Of a stretch of DNA of 64,000 nucleotides, positions 2,204-10,321 are shown piece after piece. The notes beneath the pieces are model-generated. The model was not told the origin of the DNA, did not search any database, and saw only the letters and a list, made by a program, of their open reading frames with translations. Within the stretch, counting starts at the first letter, position 1; each line of letters starts with the position of its first letter. A program made the translations under genes and the position numbers. Source of the DNA: Candidatus Marinacidobacterales bacterium (GTDB lineage Bacteria > Acidobacteriota > Vicinamibacteria > Marinacidobacterales > SMYC01); assembly GCA_965250115.1 (NCBI GenBank), contig CBDFNJ010000002.1, positions 3,662,966 to 3,726,965 on the forward strand. The letters run 5' to 3'.

Positions 2204-3592
2204 TCAAGGAAAGCGGAATCGAAGGGTCGTTAGGAACTCATCGTGGCCGATATCCTTGCTCGCGTCGATATCGTGAAAGGCGTACTCGAACGTCAGGTCG
2301 ACATTGCTCACGATAGTGACCCGGGCGCCCACGTCGATCTTCGCCCAGTCCCAGAACAGACTGGGCGCGACGAAGCCGGCCGGCGCGCGAAAATCGTTGT
2401 CGAGCCTGGCGTAGCGGAAGACAGGCTCGATCGCGGTGAACAGCGCTCCCGGATCCCCCGGGTCGCCGGACTCGATGCGATAGCCGACTTCGATCTCGAG
2501 GCCCTGGCGCGGCAGCGACGCCGACTCCTCGTTCACGAACTGGAAGAAAGCTCCGAGGTTTCCGAGCTGGGCGTCGAGGTTGAAGCCCCACTCCTTTCGG
2601 TCGTTACCCGCGATGGGAAGACTGACGCCGGCGCCATCGAGTAGGTCGAGGTCGCCTTCGTAGAAGGTCCCGTTCAGAGGAGCTGATTCCGAAAGCTTCG
2701 TTTGGTAGTAGAAACCGAAGACGTCGAGCCCAACGAGCTGGTCGTCCGACAGGAGCCGAAGGCCCACACCGGCTCCGGTCTCCAGGTGATCGTCGAAGGC
2801 GACTTCCTCGACCTCCGCGTGATAGAGGATGGGGATTCCTGCGTTGAAAGTGATCTCGGGGTTGGGCGGGGCTTCGACGCCGTTGTCACCGGCGAGAGCG
2901 TTCGGATCGCGCATGAAGATCGGGTTACCGTTGCTGACCTGGAACCGGAAGTAGAAGTGCTGCCCGAGACTGCCCCCGAGCTGAAACTACAGATCGTTGA
3001 ATCGGTTGAACGCCGTCTGAACCAGTCCGTAGCTCTCGAGCCGACGGAAGAGCTGGCGCTCGAACTTGGGCGCCTTCCCGAACAGAGCGTAGAGGTGGCT
3101 CCCGTGGATCGCCTCGAGCGATTCGTACTTCATGCCGAAGCGAAGGTAGGCCTCGTCGACGTCGACGTTGCGATCGCCGCTCGTTGGATTCCGGTCGTAG
3201 AGATCGACAAGATCGATCTTGACGCGCCCGAAGATCGACCGGGGCAGATTGGCCTCCAGAAACACCGTTGCCTTGCTGAGCTCGAGTGAGGAGCCCGGCG
3301 ACGGGGTTCTCAGCTCGACCCGATCTCGATTGGCCGGGATGAAACCATCGGGGAAGAAGGGAAGCGCGAAGAAGTCGTCCTCGGACCATCGGTAGTGCGC
3401 CTTGACCTCACTGGAGACTTGGAAAATTGTCTCGGAAGGCTCTTCGAACGGGACCTCGTCTGCGCTAGGGAAGAGACCGGAGACAACGACAGCAGGACAG
3501 CGAGAGGCAAACGACGCGGGATCATCGACAACAACTCCTGAAGAGAGGACAATTTCCAAAAAGGGGTCAATACCAGTCGCGTTTCCGGGCAC
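2204..3592 (-). pseudogene. hypothetical beta-rich (possibly outer-membrane) protein interrupted by a single in-frame TAG
   Basis: Track ORFs 2987..3592 and 2204..2914 lie in the same minus frame. They are separated only by TAG (plus-strand cta at 2987..2989). Read through, it gives ...NRFNDL*FQLGGSLGQHFYFRFQVSNGNPIFMRDPNAL... Confidence 0.5.
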
Positions 3593-3621: not shown

Positions 3622-4305
3622 TTGTATCGGTCGAAGATGAACAAGACATTTCTTCTTGTACTCACGCTACTCTGGACTCTTCCCGCATCGAGCCGGGCCC
3701 AGGTCTCGGGCCAGGTCGAAGTTCTGGAAAAAGGCGGCGTGAAGCGCCCCGTCATTCAGGACGTGCTCGTCTATATTGACGGCGTTTCCGTCGAGACAAC
3801 GACGCAGGGTAGCGCCCGGCACCAGACGATCAGGTCCCGCAACAAGGCGTTCGAGCCCCGCGTCGCGGCGGTGCTCGCCGGCACGACGGTGACATTCCCC
3901 AACCTCGACGACATCATGCACAACGTGTTCTCGCTCTCGAAGGGAAACCGCTTCGACCTAGGACTCTACAAGTCGGGTGCGCAGAAGGACTTCGTGCTCC
4001 GGAATCCGGGCCTGGTTCGCGTCTACTGCAACATCCATCCGCAGATGAGCGCCTTCGTTCACGTCACGGACAACCCCTATTACACTTGGGCGCAGCCCGA
4101 TGGCGCGTTTCGCATCGAGGGTGTCCCACCGGGCCGCTACACTCTGAGGGTCTGGAATGAGCAGGAAGAGACGACGAAGCCGGTGCTCGTGACCGAGCAG
4201 GGAGCGAGCGGCGTGCTCGTTCAGCTCGACGTGAGCAGCTACAAGAGGCGCCCCCATCTCAACAAGTTCGGCAAGCCGTACAAGAAGAAACGTGGCAAGT
4301 ACTGA
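3622..4305 (+). CDS. secreted cupredoxin-like protein with C-terminal carboxypeptidase-regulatory-like beta-sandwich
   Basis: Signal peptide MNKTFLLVLTLLWTLPASSRAQ (alternative start 3637). It has a His in IMHNVFS and YCNIHPQM (Cys-x2-His-x2-Met), an amicyanin/pseudoazurin-type type-1 copper ligand pattern. The C-terminus AFRIEGVPPGRYTLRVWNE resembles CarboxypepD_reg. The 3' end overlaps the start of the downstream sensor by 14 bp. Confidence 0.7.
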   Translation: MYRSKMNKTFLLVLTLLWTLPASSRAQVSGQVEVLEKGGVKRPVIQDVLVYIDGVSVETTTQGSARHQTIRSRNKAFEPRVAAVLAGTTVTFPNLDDIMHNVFSLSKGNRFDLGLYKSGAQKDFVLRNPGLVRVYCNIHPQMSAFVHVTDNPYYTWAQPDGAFRIEGVPPGRYTLRVWNEQEETTKPVLVTEQGASGVLVQLDVSSYKRRPHLNKFGKPYKKKRGKY

Positions 4306-6931
4306 ATCCTTGTGGTCTCGGCTCAGCCTGCAGGCGAAGATTTTCTTTCTCTCCCTTTCACTCGTCGTCGGTCTCACCGGCGCACTCCTCCTGTTCTCGT
4401 ATCAACGCGCGACCCGGCTCGCCAACGAGTCGCTCAGCCGGGCTCTGACCAGTACCCGTCAGCTCTACAAAAATCTCGAGACCGACCGTCTCGAGAAGCT
4501 CGCGCTCATCAACTCGGTCCTCGTCGAAAGCCCGTACTTCAAAGCGGCGGTCGCGGAGATGGACGCGGCGACGACACTCGATTCCACCCTCGACATGGCC
4601 GAGCAGGTCGGAAGCGATTTCATGATCGTGACCGACTACGAGGGGAGAATCGTCGCTCGCACGGACGTTCCGACCCAGAGCGGGAGGGATCTCTCGACGA
4701 CCCCTCTCGTCGGTTATGCACTCGGGGGTGAGAGTGCCGGCGGTGTCTGGGGCGAAGACGGCCACCTTTACCACGCCGTTTCGGTTCCCTTGCTCGTCGG
4801 GCCCGAGCTGCTCGGAGCCGTCGTCACCGGCTACGAGATTGGCGACGAGCTCGCCCTTTACATCAAGGGCATCGCGGGCTGCGAGGTCGTTTTCTTTTCC
4901 GCGACCGAGAACGAGGCCTATCGCGAGACGGGCTCGACGCTCGCCGAAGCGACGAGCACGCTCCGGGAGTGGGTCGAGGGAGCCTCGATGGCGTCCGCGG
5001 AGGAGGACGTCCGGCTGTCGCTCGGAGGGGAGGAGTATCAGGCGGTCTTCGCCCCACTGACGACCGTCGACGACGAGCCGATCGGTCTGTTCGCGGCCCT
5101 GCGCTCGAGAGATCGCGAGCTCGCAGCGTTTCGCTCGTTTCAGCGCAACGTGCTGCTCGTCGGTGTGCTCGGTATCGGGCTCGCCGTCCTCGCGAGCCAC
5201 CTGCTCGCGCGTGGCGTGGTCCGGCCTCTCAAGAAGCTCGTGACCGTCACCGATCGTATTCGCGAGGGCGACTACGGAAGCGACGTCGAGGTCAACTCCG
5301 GCGACGAGGTCGGCGCGCTCGCGAAGAGCTTCCGCGCGCTCCTGGGAGAGCTTCGCGAGAAGCAGGTCATGGAGAAATTCATCTCTCGCTCGGCCGCAGA
5401 GATGATTCAGAAGTCCGACGCCGTTTCCGTCGTCACCGGCGGGCGCCGGGCAGTCACCGTGCTCGTCTCCGAGCTGAAATCGTACGCCGCCTTCAAGGAC
5501 GAGAGCGCGGAGCCGAGCGCCGTTCTCGAGCGGGTGAATCGCGCCCTCGAGCGGCAGGCCGAGCTCGTCGAGCGCTACGGCGGGCAAGTCGACAAGTTCG
5601 TCGGCGACCGGATGATGGCCGTCTTCAAGGGGGAGGACCGGGTCTGGCCCGCGATTCGCTGCGCGATCTCGATCCAGCATCTGCTCGAGGCCGATGGCGA
5701 CGAAGAGGCGCTCATGCCGGGCATCGGTGTCAGCGCGGGTGAAGTGATCTTCGGCGCCGTGGGTAGCTCCAATCGGCTCGACTATTCACTGCTGGGGCCC
5801 ACCGTTCACGTGGCCGAGCGCCTGGCTAGCGAAGCGCCTCCGGGCGACGTGCTCCTCGCTCAGAACGCCTACGCTCAGGTTCAGGATCGCGCGTCGGCTG
5901 AGTCGCTGAAACCACTGAAGCTCCAGGGTATCGACGAGGTGATTCCCGTCTACAGCCTCTCGACGGGTACGATTCGGGGGCAGCAGATCGCCTCGTCGCG
6001 GACGGACGCCGGGCTTTCGCAGCGGGACGCGCCCACGCTCGTGGATGGCACCCAGGAGCCGGCCATGACACTCAGCTCGCTCGAGCCGGGCGCGGTGCTC
6101 GGCAAGCGATACGAGATCCGGCGCGTGCTCGGCAGCGGCGGGATGGGGATGGTCTTTCAAGCGAAGGACCACGACCTCGACGAGCTCGTTGCGCTCAAGG
6201 TGCTGCGCCCGGAGATCGCCTCCATGAATCCCAGCATTCTGGAGCGTTTCAAGACCGAGATCCGCGTCGCGCGGCGGATCACCCATCGCAACGTCGTTCG
6301 GACTTTCGACTTCGGCGACGCCAATGGCATCAAGTTCATCAGCATGGAGTTCGTTCAAGGCATGACGTTGAAGCAGCTCATTCGCAGCAAAGGAGCCCTG
6401 CCGATCAGCGTCGGCCTCCAGATCGCGAAGCAGGCATGCAACGGTCTCGTCGCCGCTCACGAGCAGGGCGTCGTCCACCGCGACGTCAAACCGCAGAACA
6501 TGATGCTCACGCCGCAGAGCGAAGTGAAGATCATGGATTTCGGCATCGTACGCGAAAACGGCGAATCGAGCATGACGCAGACCGGGCTGGTGATTGGCAC
6601 ACCCGACTACATGTCTCCCGAACAGGCGGAGGGCAAGGCGGACCTGGATCAGCGAAGTGACATCTATTCGTTCGGGGTGGTGCTCTACGAAATATTCACG
6701 GGGTCGACGCCGTTCAAGGGAACGACGCCAATGGGCGTCGCGATGCAGCACATCCAGGATGCGCCTCCGATACCGCGAAGCCTGAACTCGCAGCTCCCGT
6801 CGGACGTCAAGCAGCTCATCCTGCGCTGCATGCAGAAAGCCCCGGACCAGCGGCATCAGAAGATGGCGGACGTCCAGGCCGAACTCTTTCGCGTCTCGGC
6901 CGCGGTGTCCCGCCAGAGCGCCACGGCTTGA
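4292..6931 (+). CDS. transmembrane sensor: periplasmic domain - HAMP - class III nucleotidyl cyclase domain - Hanks-type Ser/Thr protein kinase
   Basis: 879 aa. TM1 is FFLSLSLVVGLTGALLLF, followed by a periplasmic region of about 250 aa, then TM2 VLLVGVLGIGLAVLASHLLA. HAMP is LKKLVTVTDRIREGDYGSDVEVNSGDEVGALAKSFRALL. The cyclase-homology domain is RRAVTVLVSELKS...VDKFVGDRMMAVFKG...LGPTVHVAERLA. Kinase motifs are GSGGMGMVFQA, ALKVL, HRDVKPQNMML, DFGIV and GTPDYMSPEQ. Confidence 0.9.
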   Translation: MASTESLWSRLSLQAKIFFLSLSLVVGLTGALLLFSYQRATRLANESLSRALTSTRQLYKNLETDRLEKLALINSVLVESPYFKAAVAEMDAATTLDSTLDMAEQVGSDFMIVTDYEGRIVARTDVPTQSGRDLSTTPLVGYALGGESAGGVWGEDGHLYHAVSVPLLVGPELLGAVVTGYEIGDELALYIKGIAGCEVVFFSATENEAYRETGSTLAEATSTLREWVEGASMASAEEDVRLSLGGEEYQAVFAPLTTVDDEPIGLFAALRSRDRELAAFRSFQRNVLLVGVLGIGLAVLASHLLARGVVRPLKKLVTVTDRIREGDYGSDVEVNSGDEVGALAKSFRALLGELREKQVMEKFISRSAAEMIQKSDAVSVVTGGRRAVTVLVSELKSYAAFKDESAEPSAVLERVNRALERQAELVERYGGQVDKFVGDRMMAVFKGEDRVWPAIRCAISIQHLLEADGDEEALMPGIGVSAGEVIFGAVGSSNRLDYSLLGPTVHVAERLASEAPPGDVLLAQNAYAQVQDRASAESLKPLKLQGIDEVIPVYSLSTGTIRGQQIASSRTDAGLSQRDAPTLVDGTQEPAMTLSSLEPGAVLGKRYEIRRVLGSGGMGMVFQAKDHDLDELVALKVLRPEIASMNPSILERFKTEIRVARRITHRNVVRTFDFGDANGIKFISMEFVQGMTLKQLIRSKGALPISVGLQIAKQACNGLVAAHEQGVVHRDVKPQNMMLTPQSEVKIMDFGIVRENGESSMTQTGLVIGTPDYMSPEQAEGKADLDQRSDIYSFGVVLYEIFTGSTPFKGTTPMGVAMQHIQDAPPIPRSLNSQLPSDVKQLILRCMQKAPDQRHQKMADVQAELFRVSAAVSRQSATA

Positions 6932-7035
6932 CCCGCAGTGGCGTGGCCGAGTGGCTGGCTATCGGAGTTACTGCTAGACTGTGCCGTTCGAAGGTCGGCA
7001 AAGACGGGGGAATTGGATTTCCTCGAGGAGGAAAG

Positions 7036-8625
7036 ATGAAGGGGTTCCAAGTGATTGGTGTCGCGTTCCTCGTGCTCGCTGTCACTGTGGGTACGGTGGC
7101 AGCTCAGGGTGATGACGTCGGAACGCTCGTTTTTCCGACATCGACGAAATCACCCGAAGCGCAGGCGCGGTTCCTGCGTGGCGCGGCCATTTTGCACAGC
7201 TTCGGATGGAAGCAGGCCATTACCGAGTTCCAGGCGGCGCAGAAGCTGGACCCGGACTTCGCCATGGCCTACTGGGGTGAGAGTCTTTGCTACAACCATC
7301 CGCTGATCGGCGACAGGGATCTGGATTCGCCTCGTGCAGTCTTGAAGCGGTTGGGAGCAACGCCTAGAGAGCGGCTTGCGAAAGCGCCCACGGATCGGGA
7401 GAAGGGTTTTTTGCAAGCGGTCGAGCTTCTGTGGGCCGAAGCAGATATCGCCGAGCGCAAGATTGGCTACATGGAATCCATGCGAAGTCTCTACGAGAAA
7501 TACTCCAAAGACGACGAGGTCGCTTCGCATTACGCGCTGGCGACAATCGCCGCCGTGCGCCCTACCGGTGACACTACCTCCCGGATGTACGTCGAGGCCG
7601 GGGCGATCGCCCTGGAAGTGTTCGGGCGGAATCCGAGTCACCCCGGTGGCGCTCACTACACCATTCATGCTTTCGACGACCCGGTGCACGCGCCGCTGGC
7701 GCTTCCCGCCGCCCATCGCTTCGCGGAGATTGCGGAAGCCGTATCGCACGCGCGTCATATGCCATCGCACATCTTCATTCAGCGCGGCATGTGGGAACGG
7801 GTCTCGATATCCAACCAATCCGCTTACGAAGCTGCCATCAACCTGTGGGAGCCGGGAGACACCATGGGTGGTGCGCTGCACGCGCTTGAGTGGGGGCAGT
7901 ATGGCGATCTGCAGCGCGGCGACTACGCCAAAGCCAAGACCTGGATGGAAAGGCTCGAGGAGCTGAACGAGAAGAGAGGCTCGCAAGCTCGCGGTGTGTC
8001 GGCCGTGCCGCTGGTGAAAGCGCGCTACGTTCTGGAGACGGAAACGTGGGACGTTAAGCCGGTGACTGAGAAGTCGTCCGCGCACGAGCTTCTGGCGACG
8101 GGTATCAGCGCCTACCATACCGGAGACAAGGCGACGCTCGAAAAAGCCGCCGGTCAGATCCGTGTCGTAGCCGACAAGCAAGCGGCGGACATGTCGCTGT
8201 ACAACCGAGTCGCGAAACCGACGCGCGTCGCGCAGCACGAGGTCGAGGCGCTCGACGCACTGGCAAAGGGTGACAAGATGGGCGCCGTCGAGCACCTCAA
8301 GAAGGGCGTGGAGCTGGCCGAAAGCATGGGTCGACCCAATGGGCCTGCCACACCGTTGAAGCCCGTGCACGAGATCGCCGGAGAGGTTTTCTTGGAGATC
8401 GGCCAGCCGGAAGAGGCCGCGCTGTTCTACCAGGAGTCGCTTCTGCGCACGCCCAACCGGCCCCTGTCCGTTCGTGGACTGGCCCGCGCTCATGCGGCGA
8501 TGGGCAATCGCTCGCTGGCCAGCGAGCAATATCGGAAGCTCCAGAACATCTGGAGCGGGTATTCTGTGCCGGGTCTGAACGAGGTGTCGGACTATCTCAC
8601 TTCAACGGATGCCGAAGGTCAATAA
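7036..8625 (+). CDS. secreted tetratricopeptide-repeat protein
   Basis: ATG at 7036 follows GGAGGAGGAAAG. Signal peptide MKGFQVIGVAFLVLAVTVGTVAAQ. TPR-like repeats (AMAYWGESLCYNH...; LARAHAAMGNRSLASEQYRKL). The track ORF starts earlier at 6928, but that N-terminus lacks a signal peptide and overlaps the upstream gene. Confidence 0.8.
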   Translation: MKGFQVIGVAFLVLAVTVGTVAAQGDDVGTLVFPTSTKSPEAQARFLRGAAILHSFGWKQAITEFQAAQKLDPDFAMAYWGESLCYNHPLIGDRDLDSPRAVLKRLGATPRERLAKAPTDREKGFLQAVELLWAEADIAERKIGYMESMRSLYEKYSKDDEVASHYALATIAAVRPTGDTTSRMYVEAGAIALEVFGRNPSHPGGAHYTIHAFDDPVHAPLALPAAHRFAEIAEAVSHARHMPSHIFIQRGMWERVSISNQSAYEAAINLWEPGDTMGGALHALEWGQYGDLQRGDYAKAKTWMERLEELNEKRGSQARGVSAVPLVKARYVLETETWDVKPVTEKSSAHELLATGISAYHTGDKATLEKAAGQIRVVADKQAADMSLYNRVAKPTRVAQHEVEALDALAKGDKMGAVEHLKKGVELAESMGRPNGPATPLKPVHEIAGEVFLEIGQPEEAALFYQESLLRTPNRPLSVRGLARAHAAMGNRSLASEQYRKLQNIWSGYSVPGLNEVSDYLTSTDAEGQ

Positions 8626-8675
8626 ACTGACTTAGCACGCCACGCGAGGGCGGAGGCTTTGAAGCTTCCGCCCTC
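8521..8675. repeat. direct repeat copy A (3' end of TPR gene plus hairpin), partner at 10168..10321
   Basis: agcgagcaatatcggaagctccagaacatctggagcgggtattctgtgccgggtctgaacgaggtgtcggactatctc...gagggcggaggctttgaagcttccgccctc recurs 1.65 kb downstream. By eye the copies are about 85-90% identical. Confidence 0.85.
8646..8675 (+). terminator. GC-rich hairpin downstream of TPR gene (gagggcggaggc-tttgaa-gcttccgccctc)
   Basis: 12-bp inverted repeat with a 6-nt loop, 20 nt after the stop codon. No clear U-tract follows. It is conserved in repeat copy B at 10293..10321. Confidence 0.35.
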
Positions 8676-8784: not shown

Positions 8785-10044
8785 TTATCTTGATTCGCCA
8801 CACCAATCTAAGATGGAGGCAGCCAGAATCTTGGTCGCCATTATTACATCATCTACCGCCACCCACTCATTGTTGGCATGCATCTGTTCCGTCTTTCCCG
8901 GTCCGAAGATGACCGTCGGTGTTTGGCCAGGCATGTTCAAGAATCGAATATCGGCCGCTCCCTCCCGGCCGCAGATTTCCGGTTCGTGCCCAGTTAACTC
9001 CCGAAACTTACGAGCTATTGTTTGGACAATTGGGCTGTCCACTGGTATTTCGGAAGGCACAGCAAAATACCCGGTAAAAACAATTTCCGGTGGATGTTCG
9101 GCCAGCCAAGAATCGGAGGCGACGTATTCCCGGACAAAAGATGTGAATTCAGCTTTGACAGTATCAGAATCTTCGCCCGGCACCGTGGCAAGGCTACCTT
9201 TCAGAAGTGCAGTGTCGGGGAAGGCGCTGTTGTAACTGCCCGCCTCGAATGCACCCACCATGCAAGGAATCGCATTCTTGATGTTCGGATAAAGTGGATG
9301 GCTCGACCTAGACATGCGGAGCTTTTCGAATTCGGCGACGGCTCGAAGCACGGGGTAAGCCTTTTCAATGCCATTGACACCTTCCCACTGGCGCTGAATA
9401 CCTGCTGCTTTGCCCCTAACCGTAATTTCAAACCAGATGCGCCCAATGGATGCTGGCTGGACCTTCATGCTGCTGGTCTCGCAGCAAATTCCTGCGTCCG
9501 CCTTGTACCCTCGCATGACGCAATCTAGCGTGCCGTTTCCGCTAAGCTCTTCATCCACGACGTATTCCAGTATGACGTCGCCGGCCAGTTTGACACCAGA
9601 ACGGACCACGGCTTCTACAGCCATAGTCATAGCGGCAACGCCCGCTTTCATGTCCGAAGTGCCACGGCCATAGATCCGGCCGTCAGCCAAATCTCCAGAC
9701 CAGGGTCCGTGCTCCCAGGCTTCTTTCGCACCAGCGGGAATAACGTCAACGTGTCCATTGAGCAGTAGGGACCGGCCGCTGCTATTCCCCTTTAGGGTAG
9801 CGACCACGTTCGGGCGGCCTTCGTATCCGCGAGAAACTGGAACATAGGCAGGATGTTTCTTAAGAGCCTCCCAGTCCGGCTCGAATACATCGACAGCAAG
9901 CCCTAAATCCGCCATCTTCTCGGCAATAAACTTCTGGATCTCCCCTTCGCTACCGGTCACGCTGGGGTAAGCGATGAGTTGCTGCAAGAATATGATGACA
10001 TCCTTCGACATCGAATCAACAGTATCCAAAACAGTTTCTTTCAC
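8785..10044 (-). CDS. M20 family metallopeptidase (ArgE/DapE/ACY1/CPG2-like deacylase)
   Basis: 419 aa. Motifs GHVDVIPAG, GRGTSDMKAG and VVDEELSGNG resemble the M20 metal-binding motifs (H, D, EE). The region is visibly more AT-rich than its surroundings. Confidence 0.9.
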   Translation of the reverse strand: MKETVLDTVDSMSKDVIIFLQQLIAYPSVTGSEGEIQKFIAEKMADLGLAVDVFEPDWEALKKHPAYVPVSRGYEGRPNVVATLKGNSSGRSLLLNGHVDVIPAGAKEAWEHGPWSGDLADGRIYGRGTSDMKAGVAAMTMAVEAVVRSGVKLAGDVILEYVVDEELSGNGTLDCVMRGYKADAGICCETSSMKVQPASIGRIWFEITVRGKAAGIQRQWEGVNGIEKAYPVLRAVAEFEKLRMSRSSHPLYPNIKNAIPCMVGAFEAGSYNSAFPDTALLKGSLATVPGEDSDTVKAEFTSFVREYVASDSWLAEHPPEIVFTGYFAVPSEIPVDSPIVQTIARKFRELTGHEPEICGREGAADIRFLNMPGQTPTVIFGPGKTEQMHANNEWVAVDDVIMATKILAASILDWCGESR

Positions 10045-10167: not shown

Positions 10168-10321
10168 AGCGAGCAATATCGGAAGCTCCAGAACATCTAG
10201 GGTGAGTATTCTGTGCCAGGTTTGAAAGAGGTGTCGGACTATCTCGCTTCAACGGACGCCGAAGACAATAAACTGATCCAGCACGCTTCGCGAGGGCGGA
10301 GGCTGAGAAGCTTCCGCCCTC
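10168..10321. repeat. direct repeat copy B (degenerate duplicate of TPR 3' end plus hairpin)
   Basis: Aligns with 8521..8675. It would encode SEQYRKLQNI*GEYSVPGLKEVSDYLASTDAEDNK with an in-frame TAG at 10198..10200 (TGG to TAG relative to copy A). It is not attached to any upstream TPR body. Confidence 0.8.

Follow-up and report, generated by a model that had tools for sequence, protein, structure and literature searches.

A gene pair encoding a secreted cupredoxin-type protein and a dCache_3-HAMP receptor kinase, with a substituted cyclase-homology domain as an apparently optional insert

In the window, which here means the whole stretch of 64,000 nucleotides that was analysed, a small secreted copper-type protein and a membrane receptor kinase are encoded by two overlapping genes. 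Comparison across species indicates that the conserved system is this small protein together with a dCache_3-HAMP receptor kinase, and that the class III cyclase-homology domain (CHD) of the receptor is an optional insert. The module is judged to be built of known signalling parts in a new arrangement, and a full-text literature search found no description of a cupredoxin plus dCache_3 receptor kinase module, its yield being the Rv1900c precedent and the Cache census cited below. The genes concerned are the following.

2204..3592, - strand: putative outer-membrane beta-barrel gene, divergent, ~440 aa in relatives, with an in-frame TAG at 2987-2989 in the window
3622..4305, + strand: small secreted-protein gene, 227 aa, TTG start (ORF list)
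4292..4305, + strand: 14-bp overlap of the small gene's stop region and the receptor gene's GTG start
4292..6931, + strand: receptor gene, 879 aa, GTG start, frame uninterrupted (ORF list)

The letters of the overlap, read directly from the window, are GTGGCAAGTACTGA. Its length follows from taking GTG as the receptor start; the public gene call of the identical receptor sequence (P0001) starts at TTG 4310 and gives 873 aa, and the 14-bp overlap is called likewise in other members of the receptor's 90% cluster and in the orthologues L001 and L002. In CHD-less relatives, the spacing between the two genes ranges from a 23-bp overlap to a 13-bp gap. An alternative ATG start of the small gene at 3637 would give 222 aa. 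The outer-membrane gene was considered as a universal third partner and rejected: iterated jackhmmer found homologues in only 11 of the 70 loci with enough upstream sequence, and three versions of the upstream gene used as queries did not merge into one family, so it is treated as a frequent, non-universal neighbour.

The product of the small gene is a secreted protein in which a cupredoxin fold, carrying all of the type-1 copper ligands, is joined to a probable transthyretin-like sandwich. A Sec-type signal peptide (~1-26) and N-terminal strands are followed by the cupredoxin domain, the sandwich and a basic C-terminal tail, located as follows.

3817..4071, + strand: cupredoxin domain, residues ~66-150, with the type-1 copper ligand set
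3919-3921, + strand: H100, candidate copper ligand, with Asn101 next to it
4027-4029, + strand: C136, candidate copper ligand
4036-4038, + strand: H139, candidate copper ligand
4045-4047, + strand: M142, candidate copper ligand
4072..4236, + strand: candidate transthyretin-like / CarboxypepD_reg-like (Pfam PF13620) beta-sandwich, residues ~151-205
4237..4302, + strand: conserved C-terminal tail PHLNKFGKPYKK..KY, low model confidence

The cupredoxin fold was recovered by a fold match, and in alignment the four candidate ligands fall on the ligand positions of 9cck and pseudoazurin, with the C-x2-H-x2-M loop in amicyanin spacing. The H-N...C-x2-H-x2-M pattern is intact in 203 of 204 family members examined; in the fetched loci the copper site looks more conserved than it otherwise would, since both genome-scan patterns already contain two of its ligand motifs, HN and Cys-x2-His, but lack the Met. 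The protein lies below the cutoffs of the Pfam Copper-bind profile PF00127 (15.0 vs 21.2 bits) and of the pseudoazurin profile TIGR02375 (16.2 vs 109.85 bits). Compared with amicyanin, pseudoazurin and the Nitrosopumilus cupredoxin 5fc9, its identity is only 20-30%, it has an extra, probably transthyretin-like domain and the conserved basic tail, and it is encoded beside a signalling protein rather than a redox enzyme; 5fc9 moreover carries Arg at the axial Met position. In the tail, H212, N214, K215, G217, Y220 and the last residue, a Tyr, show little or no variation; the tail may serve as a docking peptide.

The receptor runs from TM1 (~15-37) through dCache_3, TM2 (~283-305), HAMP, a helix like a cyclase-transducer element (CTE), the CHD and a disordered linker to a Hanks kinase; the TM segments are hydrophobic stretches read from the sequence.

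4430..5092, + strand: periplasmic dCache_3 sensor, residues 47-267, 41.4 bits vs cutoff 25.7 (Pfam PF14827)
5201..5359, + strand: HAMP, residues 304-356, 53.3 bits vs cutoff 25 (Pfam PF00672), directly after TM2
5360..5446, + strand: helical connector resembling a cyclase-transducer element (..LREKQVMEKFISRSAAEMIQ..), from homologue alignment and the AF2 model
5447..5959, + strand: class III CHD, residues 386-556
5471-5473, + strand: E394, canonically Asp, first metal position, codon GAG
5807-5809, + strand: H506, canonically Asn, transition state, codon CAC
5960..6085, + strand: CHD-kinase linker, residues 557-598, predicted disordered, pLDDT ~30
6110..6859, + strand: Hanks-type Ser/Thr kinase, residues 607-856, 171.2 bits, E 3.6e-50 (Pfam PF00069)

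In the AF2 model, the sensor forms two alpha/beta modules (pLDDT 80-92); a sensor-only search of a large protein database with the periplasmic domain returned just 13 fragments and gave no picture of the outputs joined to this sensor. Connector residues M360, K362, S365, S367 and A369 are invariant within the clade, and the linker is poorly conserved (0.40 identity vs 0.64-0.71 for the domains). The kinase motifs GSGGMGMV, VALK, FKTEIRV, HRDVKPQN, MDFG and SPE are all intact and kept across homologues. The best NCBIfam match of the kinase domain is the Stk1/PknB PASTA kinase (NF033483; 349.8 bits, residues 600-872, profile positions 2-272), under its cutoff of 450, and no PASTA match was obtained. 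The original prediction, made from the letters alone, had described both reading frames with their 14-bp overlap, a HAMP, cyclase-homology and Hanks kinase triple fusion with a periplasmic sensor, and an amicyanin-type Cys-x2-His-x2-Met pattern in the small protein; the ORF list and direct reading, the Pfam domain matches, and the alignment of the ligands with cupredoxins agree with it on all of these.

An artefact of assembly or gene calling, which would have joined a cyclase gene to a kinase gene, is an extremely improbable source of the fusion. Although the source is probably a metagenome-assembled genome, as are the closest relatives, no point in favour of this explanation was found; the 879-aa frame is uninterrupted, the CHD plus kinase architecture occurs in ~65 clusters that come from many different sources and independent assemblies, and the independently assembled genomes L001/L004, L002, L006, L007, L008 and L023 share it. 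Artefact and chance were both rejected on this recurrence in clusters, independent genomes and loci. A 601-aa, seemingly kinase-less protein (P0066) was not counted as an architecture of its own, since it diverges abruptly at the CHD end and looks frameshifted.

When one genome for each species was scanned with sequence patterns, the small gene was detected in at least 592 species. For synteny, 80 loci were fetched from different species, 75 of which were informative downstream, and a dCache_3-like sensor ORF lay directly 3' of the small gene on the same strand in 72 of these 75. The output that follows the sensor varies: kinase alone (56 loci), CHD plus kinase (10 loci) and, in L079, a hybrid histidine kinase with GGDEF-EAL, while in L077 and L084 a cyclase-alone receptor stands in convergent orientation to the small gene. 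Because the output varies and the sensor stays, the small protein appears to be tied to the periplasmic sensor and not to any one output. Most family members carry no CHD. In neighbour-joining trees of sensor, HAMP and kinase or of sensor and HAMP, the two CHD-bearing clades are placed apart and the window's clade sits among CHD-less Vicinamibacteria; the trees have no support values and cannot tell gain of the CHD from its loss. The chance that the pair might not be conserved elsewhere, raised with the original prediction, is thus removed by the co-occurrence, and its framing as a pairing of two output chemistries was right about the fusion and missed the main point, the CHD being an optional insert.

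The CHD matches Pfam Guanylate_cyc PF00211 (residues 386-546, 44.4 bits vs cutoff 21.9, E 1.8e-11), and pairwise HMMER alignments to the solved cyclases 2w01 and 3r5g gave E values of 3.8e-18 and 2.4e-16. In these alignments, 'vlvSElksy' stands opposite 'iltSDlrgf' and 'GptvHvaeRl' opposite 'GaqvNltyRi', so that the predicted D-to-E and N-to-H substitutions are borne out by both. The catalytic signature of the window is E394, K435, D439, S499, H506, R510 and R495. Of the two metal-binding Asp residues, the first is Glu394 and the second, Asp439, is invariant in the clade; in the transition-state pair, Asn is replaced by His506 and Arg510 is invariant. Lys435 (Arg in a few homologues) and Ser499 (Ser/Thr across the clade) form a class IIIb-like substrate-specifying pair.

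The two substitutions had been treated alike and are not equivalent. His at the H506 position is a clade trait, found in ~65 of 70 fusion-clade members (otherwise Tyr, Gln or Ser), whereas Glu at the first metal position is limited, within the fusion clade, to the window and its closest relative, L001/L004, the rest keeping Asp. Thus the fusion clade reads D-K-D-S/T-H-R-R, the window E-K-D-S-H-R-R and L001 E-K-D-S-Q-R-R. Glu at the first metal position can still coordinate metal. All four kinase-less paralogues examined that have the same sensor are fully canonical (D-K-D-T-N-R-R). In a second fusion clade every catalytic residue is lost (e.g. E-T-H-A-Q-S-Q); its CHD is missed by Pfam and is recovered by hhalign to the window CHD (probability 98.9, E 1.4e-17).

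Five of the seven catalytic positions are strictly conserved across >60 clade members (55-73% identity), and the mean identity across the clade is 0.64 for the CHD vs 0.63 for the sensor. The retention of Lys435, Asp439, Ser/Thr499, Arg495 and Arg510, with a CHD conserved like the sensor, indicates that the pocket is still under selection. This conservation of residues and of the whole domain would suit a working enzyme as well as a nucleotide-binding pseudoenzyme. Since the kinase-less paralogues are canonical, the second fusion clade is degenerate and most relatives have no CHD, 'impaired or re-purposed' appears to fit the window-clade CHD better than 'degenerate'. The suggestion of a degenerate or regulatory domain in place of an active cyclase is therefore supported comparatively as to impairment, and was too strong in the word degenerate, five residues being kept.

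A truly bifunctional receptor, with an active adenylyl or guanylyl cyclase turning one signal into both cyclic nucleotide and protein phosphorylation, perhaps with base specificity relaxed like that of Rv1900c, is possible but rather unlikely. It would account for the conservation of the CHD, in which the sixth position is a fixed His and not a drifting one, and for the CTE-like helix ahead of the CHD, as in HAMP cyclases. The soluble Rv1900c of Mycobacterium tuberculosis, joined to an alpha/beta-hydrolase domain, has neither a kinase nor a membrane sensor, and its substrate-specifying residues differ from those of the window CHD. It likewise carries His for the transition-state Asn and is described as active (PMC4886424), so this replacement alone does not imply an inactive enzyme. 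However, the four paralogues keep Asn and no fusion member does, which suggests that function changed when the domains were fused; in the window a metal-binding Asp is replaced as well, the second fusion clade keeps the domain with its whole active site lost, and most family members work without any CHD.

We therefore put forward, with somewhat less than even confidence, a two-gene envelope-sensing module in which phosphorylation is the main output, the CHD an impaired relay and the blue-copper protein a periplasmic co-sensor, the functional steps being ones that we infer throughout. The small protein would bind copper in the periplasm, and copper occupancy or the Cu(I)/Cu(II) state would alter its binding to dCache_3, possibly through the conserved basic C-terminal tail. 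HAMP would relay the change across the membrane, and the Hanks kinase, tethered by the flexible linker of ~40 residues, would be turned on or off by how the two subunits are arranged or how close they lie, and would phosphorylate cytoplasmic targets. Between HAMP and kinase, the CHD may act as an obligate-dimer relay, still nucleotide-binding and catalytically impaired, at most a weak cyclase and not a second main output.

A role of the small protein as copper or redox sensing partner draws support from the strict synteny across phyla and output types seen in the gene order; synteny alone is no proof that this protein touches the sensor. Another explanation, which we regard as possible but rather unlikely, is that the small protein is an electron carrier or copper handler co-expressed with or regulated by the kinase, and that dCache_3 binds a small-molecule ligand of its own. 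Cupredoxins normally carry electrons. Some loci have redox genes in their neighbourhood: L087 one for a multihaem cytochrome, L085 genes for molybdopterin oxidoreductase and cytochromes. The small-protein family, with 12,845 cluster representatives, is far larger than the kinase family and contains multi-repeat giants, not all of which can pair with a kinase. Cache domains also usually bind small ligands directly, as described in the 2016 census (PMC4822843). Against this, the adjacency is very strict, mostly overlapping, in several phyla, and persists when the output domain changes and the sensor remains the same, a pattern that favours the co-sensor reading and that physical partners such as LuxP-LuxQ or TorT-TorS typically show.

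Among known systems, HAMP-containing class III cyclases, such as the mycobacterial adenylyl cyclases Rv3645 and Rv1319c, and the kinase-less paralogues P0073, P0074 and L077 are alike in two TMs, an extracytoplasmic sensor, HAMP, a helical connector and a CHD, and the paralogues also have a sensor of the dCache_3 type and the small cupredoxin gene as a neighbour. These proteins end after the CHD with its canonical residues, whereas the window protein adds the Hanks kinase and the Glu and His substitutions. TOMM kinase/cyclase fusions (TIGR03903) likewise combine a Hanks kinase with a class III cyclase domain; however, their kinase is N-terminal, without transmembrane sensor or HAMP, the order being reversed in the window, and the TIGR03903 score of the window protein, 152.9 bits with only the kinase part matching, lies well under the cutoff of 705.75. 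PknB/Stk1 receptor kinases also place a kinase domain on a flexible linker in a membrane receptor, but in PknB the kinase is N-terminal, with one transmembrane helix and extracellular PASTA repeats and without HAMP, Cache or CHD. In LuxP-LuxQ, TorT-TorS, YfiR-YfiN and HbpS-SenS, a secreted protein encoded beside a transmembrane sensor is thought to deliver the signal periplasmically; the present pair, a putative one as to interaction, differs in its cupredoxin-type partner and Hanks kinase output.

Animal receptor guanylyl cyclases are, like the window protein, single-chain receptors; in them a pseudokinase stands ahead of an active cyclase, which it regulates. In the window order and roles are reversed, an apparently impaired cyclase standing before an intact kinase. 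The animal receptors (GC-A/NPR-A, GUCY2) are described as having a sensor outside the cell together with one domain of protein-kinase fold and one of class III cyclase fold (PMC10463195). This analysis yielded no evidence of shared ancestry between the two architectures.

The gene pair recurs in hundreds of bacteria from soil and sediment. Acidobacteriota and Gemmatimonadota, phyla with an abundant presence in both habitats, are poorly studied; to our knowledge, their signalling is almost undescribed, and the inputs of bacterial Hanks kinases are mostly unidentified. In the text of the 2016 census of Cache receptors, 883 dCache_3 proteins include a Ser/Thr kinase in 1 and a cyclase in 4 (PMC4822843); here, dCache_3 sensor plus kinase was found in hundreds of species, nearly always beside the copper-type protein. 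These observations may, as a speculative rather than a probable reading, reflect an undescribed widespread pathway in which a periplasmic blue-copper protein responds to redox state or copper and acts as ligand for a dCache_3-HAMP receptor Ser/Thr kinase, with a CHD pseudoenzyme relay in some lineages; its hosts would be Acidobacteriota, Gemmatimonadota and some other phyla. If the small protein carries the signal, a cupredoxin would be used for sensing and not for electron transfer, and a bacterial Hanks kinase would gain a defined input. The CHD offers a natural experiment on an enzyme domain turning into a structural relay, since canonical, singly or doubly substituted, fully degenerate and deleted versions share one receptor framework. 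If true, the pathway would be the bacterial counterpart, in mirror image, of the animal receptor guanylyl cyclases and would provide a natural series of intermediates from active cyclase through dead scaffold to loss.

Both ORFs of the pair were found in the window where the original prediction had placed them, including the 14 bp common to the small protein gene and the receptor gene, as read from the window sequence. The features of the region are as follows.

888-2159, + strand: secreted PQQ-like/BamB-like beta-propeller protein, just past the outer-membrane-like gene
2204-3592, - strand: putative outer-membrane protein gene, divergent, with an in-frame TAG at 2987-2989
3622..4305, + strand: small protein gene, ORF of 227 aa
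4237-4302, + strand: basic C-terminal tail PHLNKFGKPYKR...Y of the small protein (residues 206-227)
4292..6931, + strand: receptor gene, ORF of 879 aa
5471-5473: GAG codon of receptor Glu394
5807-5809: CAC codon of receptor His506
6928-8625, + strand: TPR-repeat protein ORF, downstream of the receptor
8521-8675 and 10168-10321: direct repeat of ~155 bp, copies 88-91% identical
8785..10044, - strand: 419-aa ORF in a 1.65-kb low-G+C segment
27709-29478, - strand: another Hanks-type kinase ORF, scoring 180 bits with the kinase profile of the family

In the receptor, dCache_3 (residues 47-267), HAMP (304-356), Guanylate_cyc, the class III cyclase-homology domain or CHD (386-546), and Pkinase (607-856) all scored above the curated Pfam thresholds. 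Hydrophobic segments (~15-37 and ~283-305) lie on either side of dCache_3, indicating that it faces the periplasm, and sequence alignment showed the full set of Hanks kinase motifs to be intact. Every domain was folded in the AlphaFold monomer model, and the interval between CHD and kinase (residues 558-590) had a pLDDT of ~30. The nearest relatives were metagenome-assembled genomes labelled Vicinamibacteria or 'Candidatus Marinacidobacterales', phylum Acidobacteriota. The second kinase ORF of the window is without sensor, HAMP or CHD parts.

The small protein carries a Sec-type signal peptide, and its AlphaFold model (pLDDT 88.6) matched two known folds. In HMMER alignments, His100-Asn101 and Cys136-x2-His139-x2-Met142 fell on the copper ligands of a nitrite-reductase cupredoxin domain and of pseudoazurin; 5fc9 agreed at the His and at Cys-x2-His and has Arg at the Met position. 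The ligand pattern was retained in 203 of 204 family members examined, a count biased towards retention among the fetched loci because the scan patterns included the first-His and Cys-x2-His motifs (not Met). The basic tail is nearly invariant and was modelled with low confidence; it is found at the C-terminus of small proteins from different phyla, also in the copy adjoining a kinase-less cyclase, and could be the contact with the sensor. Of the Pfam and NCBIfam models scanned, only fn3_3 passed its curated cutoff, and that by a narrow margin (24.7 vs 24.4). At E <= 0.001 the family numbers 12,845 representatives, falling to 5,284 at E <= 1e-10. Some relatives are very large proteins in which the cupredoxin part is matched 6-9 times (database homologues P0269, 1154 aa; P0272, 3178 aa; P0287, P0317 and others), and many others are extended at the N-terminus by 110-250 residues; such giant or extended relatives cannot all partner kinases.

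In a pattern scan with one genome per species, at least 592 species carried the small gene; most belong to Acidobacteriota (Vicinamibacteria, Thermoanaerobaculia, Holophagales) or Gemmatimonadota, and a few to Proteobacteria or Latescibacterota. For the neighbour survey, 80 fetched loci were searched with profiles of the individual domains of the window's family, and downstream sequence was usable in 75. A dCache_3-like sensor ORF followed the small gene directly, in the same orientation, in 72 of these 75 loci, and the gene pair is conserved elsewhere. The 72 sensor loci comprised 56 sensor-HAMP-kinase receptors without CHD, in which a low-complexity gap of 28-70 residues separates HAMP from kinase, ten with a CHD (five near-canonical and five degenerate), five ending at a contig edge, and one HAMP hybrid histidine kinase with GGDEF and EAL (locus L079). 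In addition, the canonical kinase-less dCache_3-HAMP-CHD cyclases of loci L077 and L084 adjoin a small-protein homologue (42% identical, E 2e-44) in convergent orientation. The 14-bp overlap recurred in the gene calls of L001 and L002, and in CHD-less pairs the genes overlap by up to 23 bp or lie up to 13 bp apart. Since the same sensor neighbours the small protein while the output varies (kinase, CHD plus kinase, histidine kinase, cyclase), the small protein tracks the sensor domain and not the output, which is the strongest argument for an interaction of the two in the periplasm.

The L079 protein (L079:7579-12441, 1621 aa, Rariloculaceae, Gammaproteobacteria) reads HAMP/histidine kinase/receiver/Hpt/PAS/GGDEF/EAL, and its N-terminus matches the sensor profile only weakly. 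In CHD-less loci (L011, L013, L015 and others), a short motif, LEKYVASL or LEQYVASL, stands just after HAMP and resembles the start of the window's pre-CHD connector, MEKFISRS; the motif may be left over from a CHD since lost, or may just be an exit helix that these HAMP domains have in common.

Alignment to the solved cyclases 2w01 (E 3.8e-18) and 3r5g (E 2.4e-16) bore out both predicted cyclase substitutions, with Glu394 in place of the first metal-binding Asp and His506 in place of the transition-state Asn. For their histories, 29 homologues of the same architecture were aligned, and seven catalytic positions were then tabulated in 83 CHDs.

Residues at the catalytic positions of the CHD (order: first metal Asp, substrate Lys, second metal Asp, substrate Ser/Thr, transition-state Asn, transition-state Arg, phosphate-binding Arg)
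Kinase-less paralogues with the same sensor (P0073, P0074, L077): D-K-D-T-N-R-R, canonical
Unrelated CHD protein in L083: D-K-D-T-N-R-R, canonical
Fusion clade (near-canonical CHD plus kinase, window included), >60 sequences: D-K-D-S/T-H-R-R
Window: E-K-D-S-H-R-R
Nearest relative (L001/L004): E-K-D-S-Q-R-R

The two substitutions thus have different histories: His at the Asn position is a trait of the fusion clade, and Glu at the first metal position is private to one young lineage. A sequencing error as the source of Glu394 was ruled out, since an independent assembly has the same Glu.

Five more distant receptors of ~890 aa (L065, L069, L075, L082, L083), from Thermoanaerobaculia, a deltaproteobacterium and an Oceanospirillales genome, have ~240 residues between HAMP and kinase, in which Pfam detected no cyclase domain. 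This stretch is homologous to the window CHD over 175 columns (hhalign, probability 98.9, E 1.4e-17) with all catalytic positions replaced, for example E-T-H-A-Q-S-Q, and the five CHDs are plain pseudo-cyclases kept within the receptor. In the window's clade, mean pairwise identity in the CHD (0.64) matches that in the sensor (0.63), with the kinase at 0.71 and the linker at 0.40; five catalytic CHD residues are fixed. Because the CHD is conserved like the sensor and these residues are fixed, its pocket is probably still in use, at least for nucleotide binding. The window CHD might be a low-activity cyclase, as Rv1900c, which also has His at the Asn position, is active (PMC4886424); this seems rather unlikely, however, since Asn occurs in every kinase-less paralogue examined and in no fusion member, and since a second clade holds on to the domain after losing the whole active site. 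The same two observations favour a change of CHD role after joining the kinase.

Each part of the module belongs to a known family, and no curated family covers the combination. The TOMM kinase/cyclase model gave the receptor 152.9 bits against a cutoff of 705.75, with the TOMM domain order reversed, and the PASTA kinase model 349.8 against 450, via the kinase domain only. Four kinds of system come nearest to it as functional analogies: HAMP cyclases have the N-terminal two-thirds of the receptor in common, PknB-type receptor kinases share the tethered kinase, animal receptor guanylyl cyclases pair the same two folds with roles swapped, and sensor kinases are known that work with periplasmic accessory proteins. 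A 2016 census of Cache receptors records a Ser/Thr kinase in only 1 of 883 dCache_3 proteins and a cyclase in four (PMC4822843), and a full-text literature search found no study of a module of cupredoxin-type protein and dCache_3-HAMP receptor kinase.

In the neighbouring sequence, the intact 441-aa L001 orthologue of the outer-membrane-like gene has Gln (NRFNDLQFQLGG) at the TAG position. Because both flanks of the TAG are still highly conserved, it reflects either a recent nonsense mutation or an error of assembly. In a locus of the degenerate-CHD clade (L083:5568-6989 and L083:5981-7660), a homologue of this gene shares the orientation of the small gene, and its stop-to-stop frame extends ~12 bp beyond the start of the small-protein match, which suggests that the lineage has a three-gene operon. 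A PQQ propeller gene likewise lies near the pair in L002. The TPR gene probably starts at ATG 7036, opening a signal peptide (MKGFQVIGVAFLVLAVTVGTVAAQ), and therefore need not overlap the kinase gene; its place beside the pair is not conserved in relatives, and its match to the peptide-modification cyclase model TIGR04510 was weak (E 6e-6, far below cutoff). The ~155-bp repeat takes in the TPR gene's 3' end with the hairpin that follows, and its copies bracket the 1.65-kb segment (G+C ~0.54 vs 0.61-0.64), which looks like an insertion with target-region duplication.

Synteny, architecture, fold assignments, both substitutions and a graded decay of the CHD are shown by the analysis. In the proposed mechanism, the small protein would bind copper, its metal or redox state would alter its binding to dCache_3, HAMP would carry this change across the membrane, and the tethered kinase would be the main output, with the CHD as a dimeric, nucleotide-binding and catalytically weak relay. 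What the original prediction observed stands; its interpretation is partly supported, and its framing as two output chemistries shifts to a centre formed by the small protein and the dCache_3-HAMP receptor kinase. The object of interest is this pair, a cupredoxin-type protein and its receptor kinase, which is widespread, and the window shows a variant of it with a probably impaired cyclase domain in the signalling path.
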